This document shows, in pieces, positions 1,137 through 23,606 of a stretch of 64,000 nucleotides of DNA. Source of the stretch: Clostridium sediminicola (lineage in GTDB: Bacteria > Bacillota > Clostridia > Clostridiales > Clostridiaceae); the NCBI RefSeq assembly GCF_050402865.1, contig NZ_BAABMF010000007.1, positions 8,141 to 72,140 of the forward strand, in the 5' to 3' direction. Numbering within the stretch: the stretch's first letter is position 1; every line of letters starts with the position of its first letter. Both the position numbers and the translations under genes were made by a program. The notes under the pieces are model-generated. The model had not been told where the DNA came from. It searched no databases and saw nothing but the letters and a program-made list of their open reading frames with translations.

Positions 1137-1153
1137 TTCGACACGCTCCCTTT

Positions 1154-3817: not shown

Positions 3818-3906
3818 TTCACAGTGCACAATTCACAATTATGCTGGATTGTGCATTATATATATCATCCAAGAAGTTCATCTATATATACGAAAGGAGA
3901 TATAAT

Positions 3907-4578: not shown

Positions 4579-4680
4579 ACATAATAAAAGTTTCCTATGC
4601 ACTAGCGATAAATATAATGACTATTGGAAACAATCAACAAAGTAAGACAACCCTTACAATTAAAGCTCGCCGAAAAATCA

Positions 4681-4706
4681 AAAGCTTTCGCATTAGCGAA
4701 AGCTTT
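4681..4706. terminator. Hairpin AAAGCTTTCGC-atta-GCGAAAGCTTT followed by a U-run on the minus strand; probable hydF terminator
   Basis: Perfect 11-bp inverted repeat. On the minus strand it is followed by TGATTTTTCGG. Confidence 0.55.
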
Positions 4707-4750
4707 CCTTTACTGTAAACTGAGCACTGTCAACTGTAAACTGTCATAAT

Positions 4751-7541: not shown

Positions 7542-8234
7542 TTAGTATTTCTGACCATAATAAGCATCAACGCCATGTTTTCTTAAAAAATGTTTATCTA
7601 ACATATAGTTTTCTATTTCTGTTTGTTCTTTATTTAAAGTTAAAGTCCTATATGCCATTTTTGCAACTTCTTCCATAACTACAGCATTATGGACAGCTAC
7701 CATCGGATTTTTCCCCCATGCAAATGGTCCATGGTTATAAACTATAACCCCCGGAACTGCAACAGCATCCATTCCACTAAATCTTTCAACTATTACATTT
7801 CCAGTCTCTAATTCATATTCATTTTCAACTTCTTCTTTTGTCATTTTTCGAGTACAAGGTATTGTTCCATAAAAATAGTCGGCATGTGTGGTACCAAAAC
7901 AAGGTATTTCCTTTCCTGCTTGTGCCCAACTTGTAACCCAAGGAGAGTGAGTATGTACAACTCCACCCAGTTCTGGGAAAGCTTTGTATAAAACAAGATG
8001 AGTTGGCGTGTCCGATGAGGGGTTCAGTTCACCTTCCACAACATTTCCTTCTAAATCTATAACTACCATATCGCTAGCTATCATATTATCATAAGAAACT
8101 CCACTTGGTTTAATTACAACCAATCCCTCTTCTCTATCAATCCCACTCACATTACCCCAAGTGTAAGTAATTAAACCTCTCTTTGGTAGTTCAAGATTTG
8201 CCTTTAGTACCTTTTCTTTTAATCCCTCTAACAT
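7542..8234 (-). CDS. L-ribulose-5-phosphate 4-epimerase (AraD/SgbE/UlaF class II aldolase family)
   Basis: Collinear with AraD: ...[28 protein letters not shown]...HTHS. Length is 230 aa. Confidence 0.85.
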
Positions 8235-8405
8235 GAGTTCCCTCCCTTTTAGTCTTAATTTACTTTTAAATTACACTATAAGATGAAACCGTCTCACACG
8301 TAAAGTAGCACATCCTACAGACCTTTAGGCCCCAACATAAATTTATCCCCTCCATTATAAAAAATTTGTGAGTGCAAATTGAATTTATAATGTTATGGAA
8401 AATAT

Positions 8406-9248
8406 TTAGTCAAATTTTGATCTTAAAAAATTACATGCAAATTCTAATTCTTTTTTCCAATCAGAGTTTTCTTTATACCAAAACTCTCCTGTAAACATAT
8501 TAACACCTGATTTTCTTAACTCTTTTATAACCCTTTCAAATTCAACATGACCAGTGCCAAATGGAACTTCTCTAAATATACCTGGGATAGTTTCTTTCAA
8601 ATGTACAGCTACAACTTTTCCTATTCCTTTAGATATATCATCTATAACATTAGTGTTATACATCTTTGATGCGTTTGTGATATTACCTATATCTGGATAA
8701 ACATTCAAATACGGTGAATTAATCTTTTCCACATATCTCATAGCTTTTTCAACAGTATTCATGAATTCCGTTTCCATTGTTTCAAAACCTAGAAGAACTC
8801 CTTTTTTTGCTGCATATTCTACACTTTCTTTTAAATTCATACCGAAACGTTCTATTGTTTCAGGTGAAGATTCTTCATAATAGACATCATACCCTGCTAT
8901 TTGAATTATTCTAATCCCTATATCACTTGCAAAATCAATAGCTTTTCTCATTATTTCCATACCCTTATTGACTGTTGATTCAAAATTACTCCCTAATGGA
9001 TATTTTCTATGTCCACTTAAGCACATTGTTTTTATAGGCATTTCCATTTTATACATTGCATCTACTAATTCTTTTTTATCATCATAACTCCAATAAAGTC
9101 TTTCTAGTTTCTCATCAGTTTCATCAATACTAATTTCCATAAAATCAAAACCCGCAGATTTTCCTGCTTTTAATTTTTCTTCTAACGAAAGATAATTTGG
9201 CATTGATTTCTCATATACACCCAATAGATATGTCATAAAAACCTCCAT
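8406..9248 (-). CDS. L-ribulose-5-phosphate 3-epimerase-like sugar-phosphate isomerase/epimerase (UlaE/SgbU type, xylose-isomerase-like TIM barrel)
   Basis: LGVYEKS...EEKL..AK..GFDF.E.SIDE motif arrangement as in UlaE. The true start is possibly the internal Met at 9236. Confidence 0.7.
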   Translation of the reverse strand: MEVFMTYLLGVYEKSMPNYLSLEEKLKAGKSAGFDFMEISIDETDEKLERLYWSYDDKKELVDAMYKMEMPIKTMCLSGHRKYPLGSNFESTVNKGMEIMRKAIDFASDIGIRIIQIAGYDVYYEESSPETIERFGMNLKESVEYAAKKGVLLGFETMETEFMNTVEKAMRYVEKINSPYLNVYPDIGNITNASKMYNTNVIDDISKGIGKVVAVHLKETIPGIFREVPFGTGHVEFERVIKELRKSGVNMFTGEFWYKENSDWKKELEFACNFLRSKFD

Positions 9249-9263
9249 TAAATTAACAAGTCT

Positions 9264-10775
9264 TTAGAATTTTTTCCATAAACTATCCAAAACTTGAGAA
9301 GTTTCTTTATATAATTCAAATTTAGATTGATAGATTTTAACATTTTCCCTAATAGGTTCTACTCGCTGTTTAATTTTAACTAATTTATTAGCTGCATCTT
9401 TTAAGTTTTCAAATACTCCTGCTGCTACTCCTGCGGCCATGGCAGCTCCTAATGCCCCTAATTCCTTTGTTTCAATAATTTCAATAGGTAAATTGAGTAC
9501 ATCTGCAAATATTTGAACCCAAACTTTAGAATTTGCAGCTCCTCCAGCCAGTCTTACTGATTTAGGTTTTGAACGATTCATAAAGAGTTTTTCAATATGG
9601 ATCTTATGACAAAAAACTACTCCCTCAAAAACTGAACGAGCTATTTGTTCTTTTGTATGGGAACTATCCATTCCAATAAAAGATGCTTTAGCCTGAGGAT
9701 TGTAATTTGAACCAAAAATATAAGGTAAAAATATAATGTTCTGTTCATCAGGTTTAACAGATTCCACCATTCCATTAATTATTTCGTAAACACTTATTCC
9801 TCTTTTTTCAGCTAATGCTTTTTCTTCTTGCATAAATTTATTTAAGAACCATTCATTATTAGCAGCAGACGTAGGACTACATTCTTCTACCAGGTAGTAA
9901 CCAGGAATACAATATAGTGAATTCATCATCACGGTTTTATTAAGAACTGGCTCCGTTGCAATATATTCATTGATACTCCATGTGCCTGCAATTACGCAAA
10001 GATTTTCTTCATCAGTTATATCCATAGCAATAGCACATGCATCAATATCAAACATTCCAGCGGCAACTGGTGTACCTATAGCAAGACCAGTTTTTTTACT
10101 AGTTTGAGGTGTAATATAACCTGATACCTCTGTTGAATATTTTAATGGAGGCAATTTGTCATATATATCTTCTAATCCAAAATCACACAATAGCTCTTTG
10201 TCATATTTTGCTTCTCTAATATTTACAAAGTTAGATCCTGAAATGTCAGTAATTTCAGCATTAGCCTCTCCTGTAAGTTTGAATCTGATATAATCCTTAA
10301 CACCAAATATCCATTGCGTATTTTGAATAACTTCAGGTTCATTATCCTTTAACCAACTGACTAGAGATACTGGTTGGCACGCTAAAACTTTTTGACAAGT
10401 TTTTTCAAAAATTTTCTCAGCAGTACCATCCTTTTGCCATTTTTCCGGATACATATATGCCCTTGTATCAGTTGAAACAATACCTTTATATGCAGGTTTC
10501 TTATCTTTTCCCCATAAATAAAGGCCTTTTCCATGCCCTGAAAGTGATAATCCTAAAATCTCCCTTGGTTCTATTTTTGCATTTTCTATTGCTCTTTTTA
10601 TGACTGAACAATTAACCTCCCATAAAACATCCATGTCTCGCTCTGTACGCCCTTCTCCAGGGGTAATTAACTCAACTTGTTCATATGCTGTAGCTACTGT
10701 ATTTCCATCAATATCAAAAATAACTGCCTTTGTATTTGTCCCACCATTATCTAGACCTAATAAATATTTTCCCAT
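9264..10775 (-). CDS. FGGY-family carbohydrate kinase (L-xylulokinase-like)
   Basis: LGLDNGGTNTKAVIFD N-terminal actin-fold motif. Length is 503 aa. Its context with the two epimerases resembles sgbK/lyxK. Confidence 0.75.
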   Translation of the reverse strand: MGKYLLGLDNGGTNTKAVIFDIDGNTVATAYEQVELITPGEGRTERDMDVLWEVNCSVIKRAIENAKIEPREILGLSLSGHGKGLYLWGKDKKPAYKGIVSTDTRAYMYPEKWQKDGTAEKIFEKTCQKVLACQPVSLVSWLKDNEPEVIQNTQWIFGVKDYIRFKLTGEANAEITDISGSNFVNIREAKYDKELLCDFGLEDIYDKLPPLKYSTEVSGYITPQTSKKTGLAIGTPVAAGMFDIDACAIAMDITDEENLCVIAGTWSINEYIATEPVLNKTVMMNSLYCIPGYYLVEECSPTSAANNEWFLNKFMQEEKALAEKRGISVYEIINGMVESVKPDEQNIIFLPYIFGSNYNPQAKASFIGMDSSHTKEQIARSVFEGVVFCHKIHIEKLFMNRSKPKSVRLAGGAANSKVWVQIFADVLNLPIEIIETKELGALGAAMAAGVAAGVFENLKDAANKLVKIKQRVEPIRENVKIYQSKFELYKETSQVLDSLWKKF

Positions 10776-10809
10776 TATAACCTCCCAATAAAGCTAGCTA
10801 AAGAAGTAT

Positions 10810-11598
10810 CTATAATTTTTTATCCACCGCTTCAATTTCACAAAGTAATAATTTGCATATTACCTCATTGCCAGCAATAATAGATACATTTCTATCATCT
10901 CTAAAGTGAATTATATCTCCACCGGCTTCATGAACTAAAAGTATTCCTGCTGCAACATCCCAAGTCTTTACATCTACTTCCCAATATCCATCAAAATATC
11001 CTGCTGCAACATATGAAAGGTCAATAGCCGCTGCACCACATCTCCTGAAGCCTCTTATTTTAGGAATAATTTTCGATGCATAAGAAACATTATTCACTTC
11101 ATTAATTGACCTATCGTAAGGAAACCCACTGGCTACAATTGATTCATTTAATTTATTTTTACATCCTACTTCTAATTTTCTTTCATTTAAAAATGCGCCT
11201 TCACCTTTTATTGCGGAGAATATTTCATCCATAACAGGTACATAAACAACTCCTAATACTGTTTCATTTTTATATTGGAGTGCTATAGAGATTCCAAACC
11301 AAGGTATCCCATTAGCATAGTTATTCGTACCATCAAGAGGATCAATAATCCAAAGGTAATCTGATTCATTTTCAAAAATCCCACTTTCTTCTGAAAGTAT
11401 AGCATGTTCAGGATAAGTATTCTTAATATGATTTAGTATTATATCTTCTGAAAGCTTATCTACTTCTGTTACTAAGTCTATACAAGTGGACTTTGAATCA
11501 ATTAAAAGAAATTTCTTTCTAAAGTTAGTAAGTTGAACACTGCCTACTTCTTTAGCAAGGGCTTTTATGTCAGACATCACTTTATATAAATTTTCCAT
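10810..11598 (-). CDS. inositol monophosphatase-family phosphatase
   Basis: WIIDPLDGTNNY and the downstream WDVAAG motif of the IMPase/FBPase fold. Confidence 0.8.
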   Translation of the reverse strand: MENLYKVMSDIKALAKEVGSVQLTNFRKKFLLIDSKSTCIDLVTEVDKLSEDIILNHIKNTYPEHAILSEESGIFENESDYLWIIDPLDGTNNYANGIPWFGISIALQYKNETVLGVVYVPVMDEIFSAIKGEGAFLNERKLEVGCKNKLNESIVASGFPYDRSINEVNNVSYASKIIPKIRGFRRCGAAAIDLSYVAAGYFDGYWEVDVKTWDVAAGILLVHEAGGDIIHFRDDRNVSIIAGNEVICKLLLCEIEAVDKKL

Positions 11599-11630
11599 GA
11601 TTCGCCTCCTAACTTACAACTAATGATTTT

Positions 11631-13166
11631 TTAATTTCTTATACTATTTAACGCTGACATATTATCTTTTAAATTAACGTAAACTTTCTTATATTCTTCG
11701 AAAATTTCATCATATAGTTTTATATTTTCTGGATTAGGTTCTATTGTACTATCAAATTCTAACCATTCAGATATTATACTTGAATCTTCAAAAACTCCAG
11801 TGCCTAAGCCTGCTAATAAAGCATCTGCTAATGGTGCTTCAACGTCATTTTTTATGATTTTCACTGGTTTTCCTGTAACATCAGCAAAAATTTGTGGCCA
11901 TTGCTTTGATTTGGATACTCCACCTACAAGAATAATTTCTTTGTCTAACTTCACACCCGTTCCATCTACCATTTCCATGTTATGACGTAATGAATAAGCT
12001 ACGCCTTCCATAAATGCTTTATATAAGTGGCCCTTGTGATGAACTAAACTTAGGCCTAATATTGTTCCTCTTGCTTTACTATCCCATATTGGACTTCTTT
12101 CACCCATGAAGTAAGGAAGTAAAAGTAAACCTTCTGAACCTGCTGGTACATCTTTTGATTTTTCTTCTAACAATGCATAGGCATTAACTCCAGTTTCTTT
12201 CTCTTGAGCTAATTCTTCTCCTCCTAAAGCATCTCTAAACCATCTAACTACAGCTCCAGCAGTTGCTGCTCCACCAAATGTATAGATTTTATTTTTTGAA
12301 TCTATTGTATGAGGCATACTTACTAGATTTTCAGAAAGATTGGGCTCTTCAGTTACAAAACCCCAACACATTGAAGTTCCTGTCATTGCAACATGATTTC
12401 CTTCATTAAAAGCTCCTGCACCTACTGTAGCTACTGGTGCATCAACACCTCCACAGATAATTGGAGTACCAACTTTTAATCCTGTTCTTTTAGCTGTTTC
12501 TTCAGTAATTCCTGCCACAATTTCAGTACACTCAACTAATCTTTCAGGGAAAAATTCAACTGGTACTCCTAATTTATCAAGCATATTAGCAGACCATTTT
12601 CTTTCCTTTAAATCATATACTCCACCAATATTTCCTGCTGAAGAATGATCTACTGCAACTTCTCCAGTTAGTTTATAAACTATGTATGATGCTGGCGGCA
12701 ATAAGTATTTTATTTTGTCCCAAATATCAAGATTGTTTTTCATCCAAAGAATTTTTGTAAATCCAAAATATGAATTAACTGAATTACCTGTAACTTGGAA
12801 TAATTCATCTAAATCAATATTTTCTTTAACCCATTTAACTTCTTCTTCTGCTCTACGATCCATCCATATTAAACATGGTGCTAAAGGATTCATTTCTTTA
12901 TCAACTGGTATCCCAGAACCACCATACAAACTACTAATAGCTACACCTTTTATATCTTCTATGTTAACTTTTGATTGGTCAACTACTCCCTTTATTGTTG
13001 CAAAGGTTGCATCCACCCAAGGTTCAGGCCATTGTTGAGCCCATGAAGGTTTAGGTGTTTCAACATCATAACCTTTATAATTGTGTGCTAACACATCACC
13101 AGTATCATTTATTAGTACTGCTTTTGTTCCTTGTGTTCCAATATCTACACCAATTACATATTTCAT
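11631..13166 (-). CDS. FGGY-family carbohydrate kinase (xylulokinase-like)
   Basis: IGVDIGTQGTKAVL N-terminus and GGGS/GG.SKS C-terminal motifs. Length is 511 aa. Confidence 0.8.
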   Translation of the reverse strand: MKYVIGVDIGTQGTKAVLINDTGDVLAHNYKGYDVETPKPSWAQQWPEPWVDATFATIKGVVDQSKVNIEDIKGVAISSLYGGSGIPVDKEMNPLAPCLIWMDRRAEEEVKWVKENIDLDELFQVTGNSVNSYFGFTKILWMKNNLDIWDKIKYLLPPASYIVYKLTGEVAVDHSSAGNIGGVYDLKERKWSANMLDKLGVPVEFFPERLVECTEIVAGITEETAKRTGLKVGTPIICGGVDAPVATVGAGAFNEGNHVAMTGTSMCWGFVTEEPNLSENLVSMPHTIDSKNKIYTFGGAATAGAVVRWFRDALGGEELAQEKETGVNAYALLEEKSKDVPAGSEGLLLLPYFMGERSPIWDSKARGTILGLSLVHHKGHLYKAFMEGVAYSLRHNMEMVDGTGVKLDKEIILVGGVSKSKQWPQIFADVTGKPVKIIKNDVEAPLADALLAGLGTGVFEDSSIISEWLEFDSTIEPNPENIKLYDEIFEEYKKVYVNLKDNMSALNSIRN

Positions 13167-13231
13167 ATTCCCAGCTCCTTTTTTTAATACTATTTCTAAT
13201 CTTTTTTGTACTTGTTATTATACCTACTAAC

Positions 13232-13274
13232 TTATATTGACAGGTCATTTAAACTTTATGACCTGTCAATATAA
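13232..13274. repeat. 17-bp perfect inverted repeat TTATATTGACAGGTCAT-N9-ATGACCTGTCAATATAA, intercistronic
   Basis: Read directly from the sequence, 4 nt past the stop of the polyol dehydrogenase gene. There is no U-tract on either strand. Confidence 0.5.
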
Positions 13275-13277
13275 TCC

Positions 13278-14354
13278 TTATGGCTTTAATAATATCTTTT
13301 TATTTTTAGGATTTTCAGCTTTTTCAAATGCTTCTTTAAAATCTTTAAGATCGTACACAGCTGACACAATTCCTTCTGCACTAACTAATCCTCTTTCAAA
13401 TAGGTCAATAGCAACAGGATATGTATATGGTGATAAATGAGAACCTCTTACATCTAATTCTTTTCTGTCCCCAATAACACTCCAGTCAGTAGTAGTTTCT
13501 TGTCCAAATACACTAAACTCTATAAATCTACCTAGTTTTCTAATCATTTGTAATCCTTGTTTAACTCCAACAGGTGATCCAGTAGCTTCAATATATACAT
13601 CACAACCGTAACCTCCTGTAAGTTCTTTGACAATTTTCATTACATCTTCTTCTTTTGGATTTAATACTAAATCTGCTCCAAACTTTTTAGCAGTTGCTAA
13701 TCTTTCATTATCTAAATCCAATACAATTAATTTCTTAGGAGTTTTTAATTTAATCAACTGAACCATACAAAGACCTAAAGTCCCTGCACCTGCCAATACT
13801 ACTACATCTTCAAATTCTATATTTGCTCTTTGTATTGTATGAATCGCACATGCCATAGGCTCTAATATACTAGCTTCTTCAAAAGTTAATCTATCTGGAA
13901 TTTTATAAATTTCAGAATTAGATCCAAATTTCATATATTCTGCCATTGATCCTTCAGCAACATCCTTTTGAAAACCATAAATGTTATGAACTTCACACAT
14001 CCAATACTTACCACTTTTACAGAATCTACATTCTCCACATGGGTTAATTTGATCTGTTGTTACTCTATCTCCTATTTTTATATTATGTTTTTCAGCTGCA
14101 CCTTCTCCTAATTCCACAACAATACCATAAAACTCATGACCAGGTATAACCGGTGCTTTTAGCCAAGGATTGTCTCCACCCCAGAACATATCAGATCCAT
14201 GTGATGCTTTTAAATCACTTCCACAGATTCCTGCGTGACCAATTTTTACAACAACATCCCCAGCACCTGCTTTTGGTCTTTGAACCTCTTCTAATCTATA
14301 ATCTCCAGGCGCATGAACTACTACCGCCTTCATCATTTCAGGTAATTTTTTCAT
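13278..14354 (-). CDS. Zn-dependent medium-chain polyol/alcohol dehydrogenase (sorbitol/L-arabinitol dehydrogenase-like)
   Basis: GHEF.G catalytic zinc site, CGECRFCKSGKYWMC structural-zinc motif and a GAGTLG Rossmann motif. Confidence 0.8.
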   Translation of the reverse strand: MKKLPEMMKAVVVHAPGDYRLEEVQRPKAGAGDVVVKIGHAGICGSDLKASHGSDMFWGGDNPWLKAPVIPGHEFYGIVVELGEGAAEKHNIKIGDRVTTDQINPCGECRFCKSGKYWMCEVHNIYGFQKDVAEGSMAEYMKFGSNSEIYKIPDRLTFEEASILEPMACAIHTIQRANIEFEDVVVLAGAGTLGLCMVQLIKLKTPKKLIVLDLDNERLATAKKFGADLVLNPKEEDVMKIVKELTGGYGCDVYIEATGSPVGVKQGLQMIRKLGRFIEFSVFGQETTTDWSVIGDRKELDVRGSHLSPYTYPVAIDLFERGLVSAEGIVSAVYDLKDFKEAFEKAENPKNKKILLKP

Positions 14355-14433
14355 AGTAAACCCTCCTCATATATTTTCAATTATTGTTTTTATATATTTT
14401 TAATAAACATTTATATCATTATTTATTTGAAAC

Positions 14434-15420
14434 TTATTTTTTCTTTTTAGAACTAAAGTAGATTGCCAAAAGGATTATTAGCCCTTTAATAACTCTTTGG
14501 AAGTAAGGTGATACTCCCATAAGATTCAACCCATTACTTAAAACTCCTATTATTAGTGCACCTATTAAAGTTCCAACAATATGGCCACGTCCTCCTGCTA
14601 TATCTGTTCCACCTAATACAACTGCTGCTATTGCATCTAATTCAAATCCTACACCAGCCATTGGTTGACCAGACATTAATCTTGAAGTCAATACCATTCC
14701 ACTAATAGCTGCTGTAACAGAACTTATAACGTATGCCATGATTTTGTATTTTTTAACTTTAACACCTGATAAACGAACAGCTTCTTCATTGCCTCCAATA
14801 GCATATATATATCTTCCTATTGGTAGATGATTTAAAATCACATAAGCAATTGCGTAAATAATTAACATAATAATAACTGGCATTGGTATTACATTAAACA
14901 GATATCCGCGACCAATGAAAGAAAAAGATTTTGGTAAACCTGCTAAAGGATATCCTCCTGTGTATAAAAGAGCTAATCCTCTAGGAATTTCCATCATAGC
15001 AAGAGTAACAATTATTGGAGGCATCTTTGCATATGCTATCAATGTTCCATTTATCAAACCAATGATAGCACCTATTAAGATACCAACTAGTACTGCTACC
15101 GCAGGATGTAACCCTAGATTAACCATTGCACCTGCCATAATAGTTCCAGTAAATGCCATAACAGCTCCAACTGAAAGGTCTATACCTGATGTTAAAATTA
15201 CAAAAGTCATACCTACTGCTAAAACTCCATTAATTGATACTTGTCTAACAATATTCATTAAATTATCAGGAGATAAAAATCTTCTAGATGATATTGCCAT
15301 TAGTATACATAAAACAATAAAGCCAATAAAGGTAATTAATTCCTTTCTTAAACCAATTGTTGATTCTCTTTTTATAATACTCTTTTTCAATTGTTTATTA
15401 TTTTTAGTTGATTCACTCAT
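14434..15420 (-). CDS. sugar ABC transporter permease (RbsC/monosaccharide type)
   Basis: About 9 predicted TM helices in an RbsC-like pattern. The start is reassigned to the ATG at 15420 (MSESTK), which overlaps the upstream ATPase stop as ATGA. The ORF-track start at 15492 would overlap the ATPase gene by 80 nt. Confidence 0.8.
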   Translation of the reverse strand: MSESTKNNKQLKKSIIKRESTIGLRKELITFIGFIVLCILMAISSRRFLSPDNLMNIVRQVSINGVLAVGMTFVILTSGIDLSVGAVMAFTGTIMAGAMVNLGLHPAVAVLVGILIGAIIGLINGTLIAYAKMPPIIVTLAMMEIPRGLALLYTGGYPLAGLPKSFSFIGRGYLFNVIPMPVIIMLIIYAIAYVILNHLPIGRYIYAIGGNEEAVRLSGVKVKKYKIMAYVISSVTAAISGMVLTSRLMSGQPMAGVGFELDAIAAVVLGGTDIAGGRGHIVGTLIGALIIGVLSNGLNLMGVSPYFQRVIKGLIILLAIYFSSKKKK

Positions 15421-16915
15421 TAATTCCACCCCCGGTTGCATAATACATAATTCTTTCTTGACTTGCTTCCTCTCTAGAAAGTTCTCCTGCAATATTACCC
15501 TTATGCATAACTAATATCCTGTCACTCATGCCTAAAATTTCTGGAAGCTCAGATGATATCATAATTATAGAAATACCATTGTCAACCAGTTCTTTCATCA
15601 ACTTGTATATTTCTGCTTTTGCTCCTACGTCAATCCCTCTAGTGGGTTCATCAAAAATTAGAATACCACTTTCAGTATTTAAACATTTTGCTATAACTAC
15701 TTTTTGTTGATTACCACCACTTAAGTTTTTAACCCATTGCAAAGAACTTGGTGTCTTTATCTTTAAGCTTGATATATATTCATCAACTATATTTTTCTCT
15801 TTTATTTTATTTAGTAAACTATATTTATTTACAATCTTATTTATAGAACCTAAACTAATATTATTCCTAACAGATGCTTCTAAAACCAGTCCCTGGTTTT
15901 TTCTATCCTCTGGTATCAAAGCAATGCCATGATTTAGCGCTTCATAAGGAGATTTTATTCTAATATTTTTACCTTTAATTTCAATTACTTTTTCCTCTGC
16001 TTTATCTGCTCCAATTAATGCTCTAACGGTTTCAGTTCTTCCTGAACCTACCAAACCTGAAAGACCAAGAATTTCCCCTTTATGCAACTTAAACGATACT
16101 CCATTAACTTTTTTGTTTTTAAGGTTTTTGACTTCTAGAACAACTTCTTTATCAAATTTAGAACCCAAGCTTTTAGGGAATGTATCCTTCAATTCTCTAC
16201 CTACCAGCATTCGAATAATATCTTGTTCAGTAACGTTTTCCATAGAATCTGTTCCAATCCATTTACCATCTCGTAAAACAGTCATTCTGTCAACAATCTG
16301 GAAAAGTTCGTCCATATGATGAGAAATAAATACCATAGTTACACCATTTTTTTGAAGATTCTTCATTAAATTAAAAAGATGCTTAACTTCTCCTTCTGTT
16401 AACGTAGCAGTTGGTTCATCTAATATCAATAGTTCCGCATTAACAGATATAGCTTTTGCTATTTCAATGAATTGTTGCTCCGCTACACTTAATTCTGATA
16501 CTGTTTTATCCAAGTCAACTTCAACGTCAATTTTATTTAATAATTCTTTAGCCTTTTCTCTCATTAAATTCCTATTTAATAAACCATTCTTTTTTCTTAG
16601 CTCTCTTCCTAAAAATATATTATCTACGGAATTTAAGTATGGAATCAAACTAAACTCCTGATGTATTATTGCAATTCCTAATTCCTGAGCTTGTTTTGTG
16701 TTATCTAAATGGATTTCTTTGCCTTTAAAAAATATTTTCCCACTGGTAGGTTTATAAATTCCAGATAAAATCTTCATTAATGTGGATTTTCCAGCTCCGT
16801 TTTCACCTACAAGAGCATGAATTTCTCCACTAGTTAAATCTAAATTCACTTCATCTAATGCTTTTACTCCCGGAAACTCCTTAACTATATCCTGTAACTG
16901 TAGAATTTTATCCAT
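15413..16915 (-). CDS. sugar ABC transporter ATP-binding protein with duplicated NBDs (RbsA/MglA type)
   Basis: Two NBDs. The first has Walker A GENGAGKST and signature-like LSVAEQQ; the second has LSGGNQQK and ILIFDEPTRGID. Confidence 0.9.
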   Translation of the reverse strand: MDKILQLQDIVKEFPGVKALDEVNLDLTSGEIHALVGENGAGKSTLMKILSGIYKPTSGKIFFKGKEIHLDNTKQAQELGIAIIHQEFSLIPYLNSVDNIFLGRELRKKNGLLNRNLMREKAKELLNKIDVEVDLDKTVSELSVAEQQFIEIAKAISVNAELLILDEPTATLTEGEVKHLFNLMKNLQKNGVTMVFISHHMDELFQIVDRMTVLRDGKWIGTDSMENVTEQDIIRMLVGRELKDTFPKSLGSKFDKEVVLEVKNLKNKKVNGVSFKLHKGEILGLSGLVGSGRTETVRALIGADKAEEKVIEIKGKNIRIKSPYEALNHGIALIPEDRKNQGLVLEASVRNNISLGSINKIVNKYSLLNKIKEKNIVDEYISSLKIKTPSSLQWVKNLSGGNQQKVVIAKCLNTESGILIFDEPTRGIDVGAKAEIYKLMKELVDNGISIIMISSELPEILGMSDRILVMHKGNIAGELSREEASQERIMYYATGGGINE

Positions 16916-16996
16916 CTTAACCTCCCTCTTCTTTTATATTATTTATTTAAGAGTGGCACTCTGTATATCCAGAGTGCCATTTTTTAATTATTATTC

Positions 16997-17944
16997 TTAC
17001 CAACTAAATCCTTTAGCATTTTCACTTGTTAATAATTCAACATCTACTGGTACTTCAGCTGGAACATGAGCACCTAGGTATTTAGCTAATGCTATACCAA
17101 AACCAATTCTAACTTGATCACGAGGATATTGAGCTACTGTAGCTTTGAATATTTTCCCATCCAACACTGCTTCAACTGCTTCTGGATGACCATCTACACT
17201 ATAAAGAGCAACGTCTTTTCCCGCACCCTCAATAGCTGCTAAAGATCCTAAAGCACCAGTATCATTAACACTAAATATAGCATCTAAATCTTGATTAGCT
17301 TGTAACATGTTTTCTGTTACAGCCATAGCTGCACTACGTTCTTGTTTACCATTTTGGTTGTCAACGATTTCAATATCAGCATATTCTTTCATAGCAGCTT
17401 CAAAACCTCTTACTCTTTCAAGTATAGGAACTACTGGAATACCATTTAGAATCGCAACTTTACCCTTTCCACTTAAATCTTTTGCCATTTGTTGTCCTGC
17501 TAAGTAACCTGCATCATAGTTTTTAGAACCTACAAAAGAATCAATAGGACCATTTGCTTGTGCATCAATAGCAACAACAATAACTCCTGATTTTTGAGCT
17601 TCAACAACAGCCGCTTCAACACCAACACTATCAGTTGGGTTTAATAATAAAATCTTAACACCCTTTTGAATCATATCTTCTATATCGCTAATTTGTTTAC
17701 TTACATCATGACGAGCATCTGTTATAATAAGTTCAGCTCCTATTAAATCTGTTGCTTCTTCTATTGCTTCTTTCATTGTAATGAAATAAGGATTATCCAT
17801 TTCCTGGAAAGACATGCCAACGATTATTCCTTCAGTTTTTTCAGCATTAGCGTCAGTTACATTTCCTGCATTTGAATTATTTTTAGTTGCGCACCCTGTA
17901 AATGCTAAAGTTAACACCATTAATAAAGCTAATATTTTTTTCAT
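16997..17944 (-). CDS. sugar ABC transporter substrate-binding lipoprotein (RbsB-like periplasmic-binding-protein fold)
   Basis: Signal peptide plus lipobox (LAFTGCATKNN). Periplasmic-binding-protein type I pattern. Confidence 0.85.
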   Translation of the reverse strand: MKKILALLMVLTLAFTGCATKNNSNAGNVTDANAEKTEGIIVGMSFQEMDNPYFITMKEAIEEATDLIGAELIITDARHDVSKQISDIEDMIQKGVKILLLNPTDSVGVEAAVVEAQKSGVIVVAIDAQANGPIDSFVGSKNYDAGYLAGQQMAKDLSGKGKVAILNGIPVVPILERVRGFEAAMKEYADIEIVDNQNGKQERSAAMAVTENMLQANQDLDAIFSVNDTGALGSLAAIEGAGKDVALYSVDGHPEAVEAVLDGKIFKATVAQYPRDQVRIGFGIALAKYLGAHVPAEVPVDVELLTSENAKGFSW

Positions 17945-18074
17945 AAAAACCCTCCTAAAATTAAATTATTTACAAAACTAATATTTATAGACTTTTGAAT
18001 TGATTAATCCTTAATTCATTACACCTCCTCATATTAAGCCATCATTTAAGCACATTTTATTTTAGAAATAATTA

Positions 18075-18146
18075 TCACAAAAAATAAGTGCCTCGTAAAT
18101 ACACGCAAAGGCATAAAAACCTTAAACATGTTCTTACGAGGCACCA
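18075..18146 (-). terminator. Leader intrinsic terminator/attenuator upstream of the sugar ABC operon (candidate ANTAR antitermination target)
   Basis: The minus-strand RNA reads GGUGCCUCGUAA-(35 nt)-UUACGAGGCAC, followed by UUAUUUUUUG. This is an 11-13 bp stem plus U-tract, located in the 528-bp leader between the ANTAR regulator and the first operon gene. Confidence 0.55.
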
Positions 18147-18471
18147 TAACCTCAAGAACCCTGAATCTATCATAAACTCAGAATTCTAAATATTAAATTA
18201 TCACAATCTCATCCACAACCAATATAGTCACTTTGTACCAATCATAAGCACAACACTAACTATTTAATAATCAGTTTAAATCACTGTTAAGAAATTTTGC
18301 GACCAACTTTTAGGTTATTCTCTATTCTAAATATGTAATACAACAAAAATAGAAATAGATTTTTATAATATTATTTTCAAATTTAACCGTATACATCCGA
18401 CAAATTACAAAACATCTTGTACACATTTAAAGTATATTACTATCATAATTAAATGTCAAGTACAAATTAAT

Positions 18472-19059
18472 TTAATTACTTAAAATTTCACTAGCCTTTA
18501 TTATTTCCTTAGCTATGTCAATCATTTTTTTATTCTTATCTCTACTCATTTTTTGCAATCGCTTCATTGCATCATCTTCTCTTAAACTAAATCTATCCAT
18601 TAAAATTCCTTTAGCTTTCTCTATATATTTACGCCGTTTAAGTGCATTTTGAGTATCGTTAAGCTCACTCTTTATTTTTTCAAATTCCTCATATTTTGAC
18701 ATAGTAATTTCAATAGCAACTTTTAAATCTTGGATATCTATAGGCTTGATTAAATAATTAAACACTCCTTGTTTTGATGCTTTTTCAATTAGTTCTCTAT
18801 CATGATATCCACTTACAATTATACTTGGAATAATCAATTGTTCATTAAGCTTTTTAATTGCTTCAATTCCATCTAAAAGTGGCATATTAATATCAGTTAT
18901 TATTAAATCTGGTTTGTTTTTTCTTGCAATTTCTACAAGTTCATTACCATCGATAGCCTCACCGATAACTTCATGACCAAGTTGTTTTAAATTAGCAGAT
19001 AAACCCATTAGACATAAATATTCATCTTCAGCTATCAAAATTCTTAATGGTTTTTCCAC
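18472..19059 (-). CDS. ANTAR-domain response regulator (receiver + ANTAR RNA-binding antiterminator; EutV/AmiR/NasT type)
   Basis: The receiver domain carries the phospho-acceptor Asp (LIITDINMP). The C-terminal ANTAR motif reads IEKAKGILMDRFSL.EDDAMKRLQKMSRDKNKKMIDIAKEII. Confidence 0.85.
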   Translation of the reverse strand: MEKPLRILIAEDEYLCLMGLSANLKQLGHEVIGEAIDGNELVEIARKNKPDLIITDINMPLLDGIEAIKKLNEQLIIPSIIVSGYHDRELIEKASKQGVFNYLIKPIDIQDLKVAIEITMSKYEEFEKIKSELNDTQNALKRRKYIEKAKGILMDRFSLREDDAMKRLQKMSRDKNKKMIDIAKEIIKASEILSN

Positions 19060-19078
19060 AAACGTCCCCCCCTAAATA

Positions 19079-20962
19079 TTAATTATATTTCTTATATGTC
19101 ACAAAAACCTTATCATTCATCAACTTTATTTCTACTTTCGTACCTTTTTCTAATGGAATAAACTCTATACTCCCTTTAAATTCGTATTTTGCAATTGATG
19201 AGACAATAGATACACCTAAACTATCCATATTATTTTTTTCAAAATCTTTTGGTAATCCAACCCCATTATCTTCCACTGATAATAAAACAACATCTTTTAG
19301 ACGTTTACATCTCACAGCAATAATTCCCTTGCTCTCACCAATAAAAGCATGTTTCAAACAATTACTAATTAATTCGTTTATTATTAAAGCAATTGAAGTA
19401 GCTTTATTATAAGGTATAAATATATCATCTAACTCTAAACATATATCTAACTCTACATTCATAGATTTAAAAAAACTTGAAATTCTTACTACTATATCCT
19501 TTATATTTATAATACTTCTCCCTAATTTATCTGTAGCCAAAAGATCATGAACCGCAGCAATACTCTTTATGCGTGAAATAATATTATCAAGAATATTATC
19601 TAACTCATAACTTTTTTCTTTCTCTCCTACTTTCTTCTGCAAAGCTATAAGATTAACAATCGATTGAAGATTGTTTTTAATTCTATGATGACTCTCTTGA
19701 AGCAAAGCTGACCTACCCATCAACCTTGTATCTTCAATTGCAATTGCAGCATGCCGTACAAAAGCAGATAAGTATTTCGCTTCATCTCTGGAATGAGCAT
19801 ATAGTCTTTCGTAGTATATTTGAATAATTCCAGTTACACGAGATCTTATCAAAACAGGAACACAAATGATTGTCTTGACTTTATTGTTTAATTCAAAAAT
19901 TGAGAGATAATCTTTTTCACGTTTATTTGAATAATATAAATCATTTTTATGAACTACATTCAGAATAAATTCTTCTTTTAACTTGGCTTGTAATTCCTCT
20001 TTAATTTTAAATTCCAAAGTATCTATAATAGTATTAGTACTCTCATCTATTAAATGAATAGTACAGCCATCCGCATTCATAAATTTAATAACTTGTTTAG
20101 ATAATAATAGCAATACATCTTTTAACTCATATTCGGAAGTCAAAAATTCAGCAGCTCTAAATACTGCATCTAAAACTTCTTCACTCTCATAATCTATTTT
20201 TGTTTCACTTTTTTTATAATTAAATTTTCCTAAAAGATTTAATACTTCCTGAGGATTCTTTTTTGCTTCATCTGCTATAAAAGTTTTTTTCACTACACCT
20301 TCTGATAAAATAGAAATTCTGTCCCCAACTTTTAAAGCTTCTTCCCATTGTTTTGTGACATATAAAATACTTTTGCCTTCATTTTTACATTTATCAATAA
20401 GTTGGTATAACTTTTGAACATACTCTGAACTCAGATCTTCAGTAGGGTTGTACATAATTATAAGTTCTGGATTATTGTAAAATATTTTTGCTATGTAAAC
20501 TATTTTTTTTTGCTCACTTGATAATTTTGAGACTTTTTGCTTATAATTGACACTAAAATTTAAGTCTTCTAATATTCTCATTGCATTTTCTTTAGATCTT
20601 TTCCAATTAATAAAAGGAAAAGGTCTTTTTTTAGGAAAATAATTCAACACTATATTTTCGTAAACTGATAGTGTATCTACTAATGTAGACTCCTGAAATA
20701 AAAATGAGATATCTTTATTGGTATTAATTTGATTCATATCTAAATTTTCTTCTTTAAATATTACTTTACCTAATACATCCTTTTCTTCTCCCGAGATAGA
20801 TTTAATAAATGTTCTTGTAATAGAATCATTGCTCCCTACCAACGCGTGTACTTCACTAGATTTTATGTTTAGATTTAAACCTTTTAGATTATCTCCTACC
20901 AAATTAACACTTTTTAGATTTTCAATTTTGAAAATAAAGTCTCCCAAAGCAAACACCTTCAC
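19079..20962 (-). CDS. cytoplasmic sensor histidine kinase with an N-terminal degenerate ABC nucleotide-binding-like domain, a GAF domain, and HisKA_2 and HATPase_c domains
   Basis: Residues 1 to about 230 are collinear with the second NBD of RbsA-type ATPases, but Walker A is GSNDSITRT, Walker B is IIMYNPTEDL (no Asp-Glu) and the signature motif is LSSEQKK. A central GAF-like region follows. The H-box ESHHRIKNNLQSIVNLIALQ is HisKA_2/HWE type. HATPase_c motifs are ELISNCLKHAF and DNGVGLP. No TM segments are present. Confidence 0.8.
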   Translation of the reverse strand: MKVFALGDFIFKIENLKSVNLVGDNLKGLNLNIKSSEVHALVGSNDSITRTFIKSISGEEKDVLGKVIFKEENLDMNQINTNKDISFLFQESTLVDTLSVYENIVLNYFPKKRPFPFINWKRSKENAMRILEDLNFSVNYKQKVSKLSSEQKKIVYIAKIFYNNPELIIMYNPTEDLSSEYVQKLYQLIDKCKNEGKSILYVTKQWEEALKVGDRISILSEGVVKKTFIADEAKKNPQEVLNLLGKFNYKKSETKIDYESEEVLDAVFRAAEFLTSEYELKDVLLLLSKQVIKFMNADGCTIHLIDESTNTIIDTLEFKIKEELQAKLKEEFILNVVHKNDLYYSNKREKDYLSIFELNNKVKTIICVPVLIRSRVTGIIQIYYERLYAHSRDEAKYLSAFVRHAAIAIEDTRLMGRSALLQESHHRIKNNLQSIVNLIALQKKVGEKEKSYELDNILDNIISRIKSIAAVHDLLATDKLGRSIINIKDIVVRISSFFKSMNVELDICLELDDIFIPYNKATSIALIINELISNCLKHAFIGESKGIIAVRCKRLKDVVLLSVEDNGVGLPKDFEKNNMDSLGVSIVSSIAKYEFKGSIEFIPLEKGTKVEIKLMNDKVFVTYKKYN

Positions 20963-21292
20963 TCTTATAATTTACAATTTTTAATAACAATACTAAACAT
21001 ATACACCATATTTATATGTCCTTTACTTTATTTGAAGTATAATATACTTTTAATTCCAAGTCAATATCTCCCTTACTACGATATTCCATAAAACTACATT
21101 ATAATAAAAATAATTATCCAATTATACTTTACACTTATAATAATAAATTTATAAATTCTTTTAACATAAAAAATCTAAAATAGATAATACCAAATATCTT
21201 TAATACTAAAGCTTTTAATACTTTATTAATATTAGCATTATCTATTTTATTCAGAGAAAATTAACTTTTTATTCCATATCTTTATTTTAAAT

Positions 21293-22735
21293 CTATAATA
21301 TTGGCGATAACAACCGAGCAATAGACTCTTTAAACTGTATTCTTTTACTCCTTTTATCATATAAATTTTTTGTGATTTCTTCTGATTCCTTTATATCTTC
21401 ATTGAATATTTTTTCAATTTCTCCTGCAACATTATGATCATAAATAAAAGCATTAACTTCAAAGTTCAATTTGTAGCTTCTTATGTCCATATTTGCTGTT
21501 CCTACAGATGCAATTTCCCCATCAACCACTATAGTTTTAGCATGTAGAAATCCTTTATTATATTTATAACTTCGAACCCCTGATTTTATTAAATCACCTA
21601 CATAAGAATATGTTGCCCAATATACAAAAGGATGATCAGGCATATTAGGAATCATTATTTTTACATCAACGCCTGACAAAGCTGCTATTCTTAAAGATTC
21701 TAAAATACTATCATCAGGAACAAAGTATGGTGATTGAATATATATTCTCTTTTTAGCCGACTGAATCATTTTCAAATAACCATTTTTAATTTCTTGTTCT
21801 TCAGCATCAGGTCCACTAGTTACTATCTGAATACCTGTAGTTCCACAATCTGCTTTGATAGGAAAATACTTTTTGTGAAAATGAATCTCTTCTTCTGATG
21901 CATATCTCCAATCAAGTAAGAATCTCTTTTGTAGACTATCAACTGCGTCACCACAAATTCTTAAATGAGTATCTCTCCAATATCCAAATATTTTACTACG
22001 TCCTAAATACTCATCACCAATATTAAGACCACCTACATAGCCGATTTTACCATCAATCACAGCAATCTTCCTATGATTTCTATAGTTTACACGAATGTTA
22101 AAGTGCGGTATTTTGGAAGGGAAAAAAATTGCAACCTTCCCTCCAGCTTTTTTTAATTCATCAAAAAAATGCTTTGGAATTGTTCTACCACCCATAGCAT
22201 CATAAAGAAGTCGTACCTTAATCCCCTTCTTAGCCTTTATAATCAGCTCCTCTAAAATTTCATTTCCAATCTTATCAGGCTTATATATATAGTAACCTAT
22301 ATGAATATGATGCTTAGCTCCTCTAATATCTTCAATAAGTTGGGTAAATTTATCATTTCCATTAGTATATATTTTAACACCGTTATTTTGTGTATACAAA
22401 GAATTACTATATCTATAATTCATTCTAACCATATCAATATATCTATCAACTTTTGAGTCATTTATCGTAAGCTTTGCTTGAATCAACTCTTCATTCTGCA
22501 ATAGAAGTTTTTTGTGCAAAGCATCTTCTTCACTTTTTAAATCAAACATTTTTTTCCTATGAAAGTTTTGCCCTAATAATAAGTACAAAAAGAAACCAAT
22601 TCCTGGCAAAATAAACAATACTACTAACCAAGCCCATGTTGATGTTGGATTTCTTCTTTCAATAAAAATTAACAATATTGCAAGTAACATATTTACAATA
22701 AATAGAGTCACAAGAGCAAAATTAAATAAATTCAT
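21293..22735 (-). CDS. cls: cardiolipin synthase
   Basis: Two N-terminal TM helices and two PLD HKD motifs (HRKIAVIDG and HAKTIVVDG). Length is 480 aa. Confidence 0.9.
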   Translation of the reverse strand: MNLFNFALVTLFIVNMLLAILLIFIERRNPTSTWAWLVVLFILPGIGFFLYLLLGQNFHRKKMFDLKSEEDALHKKLLLQNEELIQAKLTINDSKVDRYIDMVRMNYRYSNSLYTQNNGVKIYTNGNDKFTQLIEDIRGAKHHIHIGYYIYKPDKIGNEILEELIIKAKKGIKVRLLYDAMGGRTIPKHFFDELKKAGGKVAIFFPSKIPHFNIRVNYRNHRKIAVIDGKIGYVGGLNIGDEYLGRSKIFGYWRDTHLRICGDAVDSLQKRFLLDWRYASEEEIHFHKKYFPIKADCGTTGIQIVTSGPDAEEQEIKNGYLKMIQSAKKRIYIQSPYFVPDDSILESLRIAALSGVDVKIMIPNMPDHPFVYWATYSYVGDLIKSGVRSYKYNKGFLHAKTIVVDGEIASVGTANMDIRSYKLNFEVNAFIYDHNVAGEIEKIFNEDIKESEEITKNLYDKRSKRIQFKESIARLLSPIL

Positions 22736-22771
22736 ATAATAACTCCTCTCTATATTGATAAACTATTTAAA

Positions 22772-23464
22772 TTATTCCCCATTAACAAAACTTTTTATAA
22801 CTGCTTCATGAACATTCAACTTTTTCAATTCTTCTATTAACGGCGTATTATCATGTTTCAACTCAACAATTTCTGCTGAAACTTTATCATCTATATTTAT
22901 TAACGCATATGTAATATTATGACTTCCAATTTTAGGTTTACCTACGCTTCCATCATTAATCAAAAGTTTTGTACCAAACTCTTTTATAAAAGGTAAATGC
23001 GTATGTGCACAAACTAAAACATCACCATCAAAACTCTCCATTATTTCTTTTGTATCCTCTCCATCCTCGAACAAGTATTGATTCACTTTAGTTGGACTCC
23101 CATGCACAATCTTAATTACTTTGTTATTTACAGTTAAAGTTAAACTCTCCGGAAGTCTTTTTAATAATTTTTTATTCTTCTCAGTAACTTTTTCAACACT
23201 CCAAGGTAATGCGAAATTTCTATTGAAATCAGAATCTTTTATATACTTTACATCATTTGAAGCAACTGCTCTATCATAATTACCACCTATTAACAAAACA
23301 TTTTTTGAACTTATATATTCAATCACTTCATTTTGGTAAGGACCATAGCCTACTAAATCACCAGCACATATAATATTCTCAACATCTCTTTTCTCAATAT
23401 CTTCTAAAACCTTTTTTAATGCTTCTAAATTCCCGTGAATATCTGAAATTACTGCTATTTTCAT
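22772..23464 (-). CDS. metallophosphoesterase (calcineurin-like, YfcE-type)
   Basis: MKIAVISDIHGN.EAL, GDLVGYGP, GNYD and the HTH motif sequence of the calcineurin-like phosphoesterase family. Confidence 0.75.
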   Translation of the reverse strand: MKIAVISDIHGNLEALKKVLEDIEKRDVENIICAGDLVGYGPYQNEVIEYISSKNVLLIGGNYDRAVASNDVKYIKDSDFNRNFALPWSVEKVTEKNKKLLKRLPESLTLTVNNKVIKIVHGSPTKVNQYLFEDGEDTKEIMESFDGDVLVCAHTHLPFIKEFGTKLLINDGSVGKPKIGSHNITYALINIDDKVSAEIVELKHDNTPLIEELKKLNVHEAVIKSFVNGE

Positions 23465-23606
23465 TTAATTACTCCTCCTAATCGAACATAAACACTTAAA
23501 TAATAAAATCTCTTTTATAATAATACCATTTACATAAAAATGTATCAATTAATAAATTCCTATACATAAATAAAGACACCAGCTCTAAACTAGTGTCTGT
23601 AAAAAT

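Follow-up and report, generated by a model that had tools for sequence, protein, structure and literature searches.

We report a family of soluble histidine kinases in which a degenerate nucleotide-binding domain (NBD) of an ATP-binding cassette (ABC) transporter precedes a GAF, HisKA_2 and HATPase_c core. The member studied here is encoded in a window of 64,000 nt from Clostridium sediminicola (contig NZ_BAABMF010000007.1 of assembly GCF_050402865.1, positions 8,141 to 72,140 of the forward strand). Positions given without a locus handle are coordinates of this window, and the features of the locus lie on the minus strand. The kinase gene adjoins a gene for a response regulator with receiver (REC) and ANTAR domains, followed by an operon for a CUT2 (RbsABC-type) transporter and catabolic enzymes. 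The kinase, the regulator, an RNA motif in the operon leader and the CUT2 transporter co-occur across Clostridia, Bacilli, Halanaerobiales and a metagenome-assembled genome (MAG) of Thermotogaceae. We propose that these parts may form a two-component antitermination switch for the uptake and catabolism operon, a proposal to which, taken as a whole, we give an even chance of being correct.

Architecture and origin of the kinase

The kinase gene (19079..20962) was delimited from its open reading frame (ORF) and from Pfam matches to ABC_tran, GAF, HisKA_2 and HATPase_c. The encoded protein has 627 residues if translation begins at the GTG at 20962, as in the preliminary description of this locus, and 622 residues if it begins at the TTG at 20947. 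The TTG is the likelier start because the first five residues of the longer form are missing in about 85% of the members in the family alignment. This codon is preceded by GAAGGTG, the GTG lies 15 nt farther upstream, and the NCBI model for the kinase (P0001) has 622 residues. A database search also retrieved a 622-residue hypothetical protein of C. sediminicola that is 100% identical to the kinase of the window.

Four Pfam domains were identified along the protein: ABC_tran at residues 26-174 (E 4.6e-16), GAF at 280-410, HisKA_2 at 423-494 and HATPase_c at 521-614, with a weaker HWE_HK match also falling on the dimerization and histidine phosphotransfer (DHp) region. Pfam detected no PAS domain in the kinase. 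The pseudo-NBD covers residues ~8-245 (20228..20941), as judged from Pfam, NCBIfam, BLASTP and an AlphaFold model. It is followed by a linker of low AlphaFold confidence (residues ~246-279, 20126..20227), in which a conserved helix, VLDAVFKAAEFLTSEYELKD, leads into the GAF domain (residues ~280-412, 19727..20125; Pfam GAF_2, GAF_3 and GAF; pLDDT ~80-88). Pfam and motif reading place the kinase core, with its HisKA_2/HWE DHp and HATPase_c domains, at 19082..19726. The order of GAF, HisKA_2/HWE and HATPase_c domains expected from the preliminary reading was thus recovered, including the H-box HHRIKNNLQ. No 19-residue stretch reaches transmembrane-like hydropathy, which indicates that the kinase is soluble: the highest Kyte-Doolittle average over 19 residues is 1.54 and lies within a GAF beta-strand, in agreement with the earlier statement that transmembrane helices are absent.

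The H-box (HHRIKNNLQ, 425), the N-box (NELISN, 529) and the G1 (DNGVG, 565) and G2 (GVS, 583) boxes are all invariant across the family alignment, and the kinase core resembles the HWE/HisKA_2 kinase EL346 (PDB 4r3a, E 1e-13). The adjacent gene (18472..19059) encodes a regulator of 195 residues that had been described as a receiver-ANTAR protein, an assignment borne out by Pfam matches to Response_reg (E 7e-24) and ANTAR (E 2.8e-18, residues 135-187). Its receiver carries the acidic pair E11-D12, the acceptor Asp56 (in DLIITDINMP), S83 and K105. Because the boxes of the kinase and these residues of the regulator (the acidic pair, Asp56, Ser83 and Lys105) are present, both partners look competent for phosphorelay.

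The N-terminal domain is predicted to adopt the ABC-NBD fold. Its best NCBIfam matches are AraG, AlsA and MglA (E ~1e-33; 3.6e-33 for AraG), and its sequence matches to solved NBDs in the PDB reach an E-value of 6e-18. The predicted model (pLDDT ~85-93) superimposes on LptB, FtsE and ArtP with target TM-scores of 0.80-0.84 at ~3 Å. The ABC_tran match and this structural similarity rule out an unrelated fold. A fold search with the whole model matched NBDs only and yielded no solved protein with the complete architecture of the kinase; long whole-model alignments to MacB had a root-mean-square deviation of ~30 Å and were discarded as meaningless.

The four NBD motifs of the window protein were described as decayed, and re-inspection found each of them as quoted. 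Walker A is GSNDSITRT and does not conform to GxxGxGK[ST]; Walker B is LIIMYNPT, without the Asp-Glu pair and with Asn at the position of the catalytic Glu; the signature reads LSSEQKK; and in the H-loop region, VTKQWEE (TKQW), the His has given way to another residue. An active ATPase misread as dead is thereby ruled out for this protein.

The origin of the domain differs from what had first been suggested. The preliminary description aligned it with the second NBD of the neighbouring ATPase (15413..16915), but three lines of evidence point to the first. By BLASTP, residues 3-217 of the pseudo-NBD align with NBD1 of that ATPase at 29% identity (E 6e-27), compared with a partial match of 94 residues to NBD2 (E 4e-8). 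The NCBIfam matches fall at positions ~20-235 of profiles of roughly 500 positions. Finally, over 23 loci the pseudo-NBD scores on average 88-90 bits with NBD1, as opposed to 51-52 bits with NBD2. On these sequence comparisons, the pseudo-NBD is derived from an ancient copy of NBD1 of the RbsA/AraG/MglA-type ATPases of CUT2 systems.

We then tallied motif decay over 172 family members. Walker A, the Walker B Asp-Glu pair and the H-loop His are all lost in 72% of them. Walker A in the form GxxGxGK[ST] is lost in ~83% and retained in ~17%. About 12%, forming the L006/Hydrogenispora clade, retain GESGAGKT together with LDEP and have Asn in place of the H-loop His, and ~11% retain a GxGK P-loop alone. 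The Walker B Asp is replaced in the family by His, Gln or Tyr, and the Glu is kept in ~82-84% of members. The signature, already degenerate in the parental NBD1 (LSVAEQQ), remains so in the kinases. None of the 172 members has all four motifs; only six have any His near the H-loop position, and in no case does an H-loop His occur together with the remaining motifs. The description of a dead NBD therefore holds for the window protein and for about 72% of the family; it does not extend to the ~12% that keep both Walker motifs or the ~11% that keep the P-loop. These patterns suggest that no member looks like an efficient ATPase, that a minority probably still binds ATP, and that full decay is the derived state in most clades.

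Position-wise constraint was compared between 155 kinases and 75 genuine CUT2 NBD1 domains. Constraint has been lost in the kinases at the A-loop (K18, F20), at Walker A and at several flanking positions. It equals that of NBD1 at E-x-H-A before the P-loop, at V-x-E-N in the helical subdomain, at the signature Leu, at the Walker B Glu-Pro and at the D-loop Leu. The degenerate P-loop is constant within clades (e.g., KNSSEQ in Bacilli). Two clusters are newly conserved and specific to the family: 203-217 (T-K-Q-W-E-E-A-L-K) and 233-241 (A-K-x-x-P-x-x-L-L), which lead into the linker helix. The residues newly conserved in the kinases include W206, K211, A233, K234 and P237.

A conserved family linked to CUT2 transporters

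A database search returned at least 120 homologues at 46-69% identity, nearly all of 600-640 residues and with an identical set of Pfam domains. Their hosts include Clostridium, Vallitalea, Orenia, Iocasia, Evansella, Halalkalibacter, Peribacillus, Neobacillus, Mesobacillus and Paenibacillus. Scans of genomes and metagenomes added Gracilibacillus, Compostibacillus, Halanaerobium and the Thermotogaceae MAG, and also, at only ~30% identity, a more remote clade from Oscillibacter, Faecalicatena and other Bacillota; a second database search added the clade containing Hydrogenispora. With these additions the fusion family numbers over 170 members, distributed among Clostridia, Bacilli, Halanaerobiales and the Thermotogaceae MAG. 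The genome scan based on full-length alignment was dominated by HisKA_2 kinases without an NBD, which served as a negative-control set; these relatives (Chloroflexota, Armatimonadota) match the window kinase only from residue ~230-270 onward, a region that corresponds to the GAF/HisKA_2/HATPase_c core.

The fusion is a conserved family and not a pseudogene. A pseudogenized or mis-assembled fusion is ruled out because more than 170 homologues, spread over at least four bacterial orders, retain an uninterrupted ORF whose length is conserved, and because family-specific residues of the NBD such as W206 and P237 are invariant. We found nothing in favour of an artefact of this kind, or of an active ATPase misread as dead, and the conservation data leave such an explanation with next to no probability. 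Members of the family are often named "ribose import ATP-binding protein RbsA" or given generic names in databases. The RbsA-type annotation of many members is wrong and needs correcting.

Genomic neighbourhoods were compared in 16 genome loci and ~30 metagenome loci (~45 in all). The REC-ANTAR gene adjoins the kinase gene in nearly all of them, and genes for a CUT2 binding protein, ATPase and permease adjoin it wherever the flanking sequence is long enough. We did not see phosphotransferase (PTS), major facilitator (MFS) or CUT1 systems beside the kinase in any of these ~45 loci. Gene order varies (kinase-regulator, regulator-kinase, or divergent from the transporter), and this variation in order and orientation suggests functional linkage rather than just frozen synteny.

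Across the family loci there is one sensor pair per transporter. Iocasia frigidifontis, for example, carries two paralogous kinase-regulator pairs at separate loci, each placed before its own CUT2 transporter. Between the two kinases of this organism (L116 and L117), conservation is highest in the DHp domain (69-70% identity), which raises the question of how cross-talk is avoided. In the Thermotogaceae MAG, locus L005 contains two kinase-regulator pairs in tandem (396-5800), with ANTAR-type motifs between the pairs (2940-2991) and after the second regulator (5740-5792), an arrangement that suggests a cascade or cross-regulation.

Cargo genes vary by locus, with glycyl-radical enzyme, amidohydrolase and racemase, DhaK/DhaL and arabinofuranosidase-like genes all represented. 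Indeed, the first genes after the leader are not always transporter genes. They encode a glycyl-radical enzyme and its activase in L094 (3123-6709), an amidohydrolase and an Asp/Glu/hydantoin-racemase-like protein in L098 (2760-5886), DhaK/DhaL in L095 (8250-11741), and a binding protein and an arabinofuranosidase-like protein in L108 (2939-5706). Because such varied genes follow the leader, the system is not restricted to simple sugars.

The transporter operon and its leader RNA

Directly downstream of the regulator gene lie the components of the sugar ABC operon noted in the preliminary description. The first gene of the operon encodes an RbsB-like substrate-binding lipoprotein (16997..17944; Peripla_BP_4). 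It is followed by a CUT2 tandem-NBD ATPase of 500 residues, RbsA/XylG-like according to its ORF, Pfam, NCBIfam and BLASTP matches (15413..16915), in which NBD1 carries Walker A GENGAGKST and signature LSVAEQQ, and NBD2 carries signature LSGGNQQ. An RbsC-like permease is encoded next (14434..15492; BPD_transp_2). With the listed TTG as its start, the permease gene would share 80 nt with the 3' end of the ATPase gene, and homologues match only from residue ~36-53, so the true start is probably farther downstream. Six catabolic genes follow on the same strand (7542..14354, assigned from Pfam), in the order Zn polyol dehydrogenase, FGGY kinase, IMPase-family phosphatase, second FGGY kinase, L-ribulose-5-P 3-epimerase and L-ribulose-5-P 4-epimerase (AraD). 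This set would fit a pentitol/L-xylulose-type route.

The regulator gene and the binding-protein gene are separated by a spacer of 527 nt, the leader region of the operon. A promoter-like site, TTGACA-17-TATACT, matches the consensus at 11 of 12 positions just after the stop codon of the regulator gene (18431..18459) and is the probable start of the leader. Folding, covariation and a covariance model define two hairpins farther downstream: P1 (18155..18187), with the apical loop UAUGAUA, and P2 (18138..18153), GAGGU-UAUGGU-GCCUC, both loops containing AUG. An intrinsic terminator (18078..18145; -33.6 kcal/mol, z -7.7) is formed by GGUGCCUCGUAAG ... UUUACGAGGCAC and then the U-tract UUAUUUUUU. 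A simple terminator scan missed it owing to its long structured loop, but folding reveals it clearly. The 3' arm of P2 (GCCUC, 18138-18142) lies inside the 5' arm of the terminator (18133-18145), so P2 and the terminator are mutually exclusive, and P2 is predicted to act as the antiterminator element.

Two other structures were observed in the leader. The long loop of the terminator (~18103-18122, minus strand) holds a look-alike of P2, AAGGU-UUUUAU-GCCUU, which lacks the conserved G of the AUG loop and could be a decoy or a remnant. A lone P1-like hairpin, P0 (GUGCUUAUGAUUGGUAC; 18223..18255), with the loop UAUGAUU, lies ~40 nt upstream of the dual hairpin; it matches the covariance model (E 0.005), is thermodynamically weak (z -0.7) and is kept as an observation only. 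Additional P1-like hairpins occur elsewhere in the family (L001 7011-7048, L011 10659-10688 and L088 4996-5028).

From the first loci we wrote a descriptor consisting of two hairpins with A[U/A]GR loops and an overlapping terminator. On 35 independent metagenome loci it returned 18 matches, compared with 1.6 in shuffled sequences, and at least 14 of the 18 fell within the leader between the regulator or kinase genes and the transporter genes. In an alignment of 18 sequences, 88.7% of the cells are paired, none of 500 shuffles was as good, and pairing collapses on sliding; compensatory changes occur across loci in seven of the eight pairs of P1. A covariance model built from this alignment scores the window site at E 8e-8. 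It yielded 47 matches in 517 kb of family loci, including more than 10 loci outside the seed, and one weak match in 780 kb of loci carrying GAF-HisKA_2 kinases without an NBD. This sole match among the 64 control loci (L069 4818-4865, E 0.002) may be due to chance, or may be a related ANTAR target in Anaerolineae. When the 39 distinct matched sequences were aligned to the model, 92.4% of the cells were paired and 10 of 13 pairs showed double changes, in an alignment that is itself fitted to the model. A second descriptor match in the window, at the 3' end of hydF (4672-4776, minus strand), had no covariance-model support and was treated as chance. Rfam gave no match in a scan of positions 8000-24000 of the window at E-values up to 5, and the leader falls under no curated family. 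The loops of the leader motif measure 6-7 nt and follow YAUGRN(N), with G at position 4 of the hexaloop, a conserved A at position 2 and a nearly invariant U at position 3.

These features suggest how the switch would operate. The kinase would phosphorylate Asp56 of the regulator, and the phosphorylated regulator would bind the loops of P1 and P2, holding P2 closed. Closed P2 would in turn stop the terminator from forming, such that RNA polymerase would read into the transporter and catabolic genes. We consider that the phosphorylated regulator very probably controls the transporter operon by antitermination through P1 and P2.

One clade has a second copy of the dual hairpin ~80-120 nt upstream of the kinase gene itself (L082 5875-5920, L083 5884-5929, L102 5884-5929 and L109 39-84), which suggests positive autoregulation in that clade. 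No such copy was found upstream of the kinase gene of the window.

Upstream of the locus, the window contains a small sigma-factor-like ORF with an overlapping ORF for a putative anti-sigma or membrane protein (23607-24948, minus strand) and a gene for a two-NBD ABC-F-type protein of 642 residues (25478-27406, plus strand). Both appear unrelated to the system.

Candidate inputs of the kinase and related systems

The domains of the kinase have evolved at different rates. Within the family, mean pairwise identity is 44% for the NBD, 59% for the GAF domain and 68% for the DHp domain, making the NBD the most variable of these domains; it is also the most divergent between co-resident paralogues (41%, compared with 69% for DHp). 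The pseudo-NBD is suggested as the system-specific input because it is the most variable domain and the most divergent between paralogues of one cell, because the GAF domain is conserved while the cargo differs between loci, and because the linked transporters invariably belong to CUT2, the source of the domain. The pattern of constraint is also in favour of this role, with V-x-E-N and the D-loop Leu constrained as in NBD1 and the nucleotide-binding positions relaxed. The pseudo-NBD may, like its ancestor, still associate with the CUT2 transporter of its locus and report that transporter's state, a tentative reading to which we give slightly less than an even chance. In its likeliest form, the permease dimer would be engaged at its coupling helices by the two pseudo-NBDs of a kinase dimer. 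The conformational cycling of the transporter in response to substrate would then be relayed through the linker helix and the GAF domain to the kinase, with the GAF domain serving chiefly as a transmitter, or else as an additional input of a general kind.

Several observations weigh against the proposal. The transporter beside the kinase gene is complete, having both its tandem-NBD ATPase and its permease, and offers no obviously vacant docking site, so the kinase would need either to vie with RbsA for a site or to find another one. NBD1 of the same locus resembles the pseudo-NBD no more than NBD1 of other loci does (mean rank 13.9 of 23; the NBD2 control gave an equivalent result), and there is therefore no sign that the domain has co-evolved with the cognate ATPase or imitates it. 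On the helix that follows Walker A, several positions constrained in NBD1 are relaxed in the kinases, and the minority clade with both Walker motifs leaves room for a nucleotide-dependent input. On the RNA side, the loop motif departs from the canonical A1/G4 hexaloop of ANTAR targets, binding by the regulator is inferred, and the promoter assignments are consensus matches alone, of a kind not enriched over shuffles in this AT-rich region. The same cognate rank also rules out a recent local duplication or gene conversion as the source of the pseudo-NBD.

A different source of the signal, rather unlikely in our view, is a ligand sensed in the cytoplasm without any contact with the transporter. 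A remodelled pocket of the pseudo-NBD, or the GAF domain, would bind an intracellular metabolite (a nucleotide, or the sugar or polyol taken up, either as such or phosphorylated), and the link to CUT2 would simply reflect the operons that the family happens to control. The GAF domain is a classic binder of small molecules and is present in every member. The constancy of the degenerate P-loop within clades suggests a remodelled functional pocket, the ~12% of members with Walker A and B could bind ATP, and the missing cognate-specific similarity to the neighbouring ATPase also fits this explanation. However, the GAF domain is conserved at 59% despite cargo ranging from pentitol and dihydroxyacetone to glycyl-radical and amidohydrolase pathways, which is unexpected for a substrate-specific pocket. 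The A-loop and P-loop positions are relaxed family-wide and have not been re-fixed, and we know of no record of sugar binding by the NBD fold. Finally, cytoplasmic sensing offers no reason for the exclusive tie to CUT2 and the absence of PTS, MFS and CUT1 systems from the ~45 loci.

It is also conceivable, if quite improbable, that the pseudo-NBD is a structural or autoregulatory module that provides constitutive or ATP-glued dimerization, or autoinhibition, and that specificity resides elsewhere, for instance in a general signal reaching the GAF domain or in regulation at the RNA level. NBDs are natural head-to-tail dimerizers, and the conserved clusters at 203-217 and 233-241 adjoin the linker. 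The clade with Walker A and B, which has no H-loop His and a degenerate signature, resembles the non-hydrolytic ATP-holding sites of asymmetric ABC proteins. Such a module would leave unexplained why the NBD is the fastest-evolving domain and the most divergent between paralogues in one cell, as well as the exclusive linkage to CUT2, and the operon would be left without a substrate-specific input.

Coupling to the transporter could involve other contacts than those proposed above. The preliminary description suggested that the pseudo-NBD could dock onto the transporter or heterodimerize with its NBD, and so report transport flux. In the latter arrangement, which we consider very improbable, the pseudo-NBD would pair with an NBD of the RbsA-like ATPase, instead of the permease, and report ATPase cycling. 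The natural partner of NBD1, from which the domain originates, is NBD2 with its canonical LSGGQ signature, and the D-loop Leu, the signature Leu-Ser and the Walker B Glu-Pro are retained. Yet in RbsA itself NBD1 and NBD2 are joined covalently and form a pair with each other, no cognate-specific similarity was detected, and the loss of Walker A in most members makes an ATP sandwich impossible.

A bolder arrangement, for which we hold out a rather small chance, would have the two pseudo-NBDs of the kinase dimer replace the tandem ATPase on a CUT2 permease dimer. The resulting non-transporting complex of binding protein, permease and kinase would turn an importer scaffold into a transmembrane receptor. 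When the substrate-loaded binding protein docks on the outer side, the signal would travel by way of the coupling helices to the cytoplasmic kinase and from there to the RNA antiterminator, and the ATP-binding-competent and fully dead versions of the NBD would represent successive evolutionary stages.

The architecture was thought to be undescribed, and we found no published description of an NBD-kinase fusion in the searchable literature, a coverage that excludes subscription-only journals. A 2025 review of RNA-binding antiterminators covers AmiR, NasR, NasT, EutV and Rv1626/PdtaR, and a term search of its text revealed neither an NBD-kinase partner nor a sugar-transporter system (PMC12591593). 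A survey of actinobacteria connects ANTAR RNAs with transcripts for sugar and ABC transporters, mostly under translational control and without an NBD-kinase (PMC8164766). A review of sensing by kinases describes kinases fused to membrane transporters (KsAmt5) and the intramembrane-sensing NsaS/BceS, with no NBD input (PMC8534201).

As far as the searchable literature goes, an ABC domain recruited as the input of a histidine kinase is a new type of input. The new elements are this class of input domain and the variant RNA motif; two-component systems and ANTAR antitermination were known already. The family is widespread in Firmicutes and their neighbours, and its kinase, regulator, RNA motif, terminator and transporter are all delimited. 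The RNA motif would widen the recognized ANTAR target beyond A1/G4 hexaloops, and the covariance model can be used to annotate such leaders. If the pseudo-NBD does couple to the transporter, the system would be genetically compact and suited to studies of the conversion of transporter conformation into a phosphorylation signal. The family would also provide a natural series in the decay of an ATPase domain into a signalling domain, from clades with intact Walker A and B to fully dead forms.

Relative to its evolutionary source, NBD1 of the CUT2 ATPases (RbsA, AraG, MglA, XylG), the kinase domain shares E-I-H-A-L, V-x-E-N, the signature Leu-Ser and an already degenerate signature. It differs in being a single NBD fused to a kinase and in having lost the A-loop, Walker A, the Walker B Asp and the H-loop.

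The PdtaS-PdtaR system of Mycobacterium tuberculosis (Rv3220c-Rv1626) likewise combines a soluble GAF/HisKA_2/HATPase_c kinase with a REC-ANTAR regulator. PdtaS contains GAF and PAS domains and no NBD. The window kinase, in contrast, has no detected PAS domain and carries an NBD at its N-terminus, such that a PdtaS-type core is embedded in another architecture; moreover, its gene sits next to that of the regulator, and the two accompany a transporter operon. The RNA targets differ as well: the ANTAR RNAs of mycobacteria mostly cover the ribosome-binding site and act by repressing translation (PMC8164766, PMC12591593), whereas the dual hairpin described here overlaps a terminator.

AmiC-AmiR and NasS-NasT provide a precedent for a component derived from an ABC transporter that serves as the sensor of an ANTAR antiterminator. 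AmiC and NasS are homologues of substrate-binding proteins that bind a ligand and sequester the regulator without phosphorelay (PMC12591593); the co-opted part here is instead the ATPase domain, fused to a kinase. The likeness to BceS-BceAB and to sensing of the PhoR-PhoU-PstB type is conceptual, in that the kinase would read the state of an ABC transporter instead of a ligand. The Bce system is a precedent for a kinase reading ABC transporter activity (PMC4513084, PMC10314905), but BceS is a membrane kinase without a sensor domain or an NBD-like domain. It meets the permease within the membrane, its output is a DNA-binding regulator, and its partner transporter is of the exporter type.

The closest parallel in output is EutW-EutV of Enterococcus faecalis, which shares with the present system a kinase, a REC-ANTAR regulator and two hairpins, the second of them in a terminator. 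EutV is phosphorylated by its kinase and binds the two hairpins, the second of which is embedded in an intrinsic terminator, so that termination is prevented (PMC3369931, PMC8934654). EutW, unlike the kinase described here, senses ethanolamine directly and has no NBD. The canonical ANTAR substrate consists of dual hexaloops with A1 and G4, P2 being embedded in the terminator (PMC3369931, PMC8934654); the leader studied here has the same layout, with loops of the form YAUGRN(N) that carry A at position 2. The mechanism proposed here, which is well supported, would apply the logic of EutW/EutV to a CUT2 operon.

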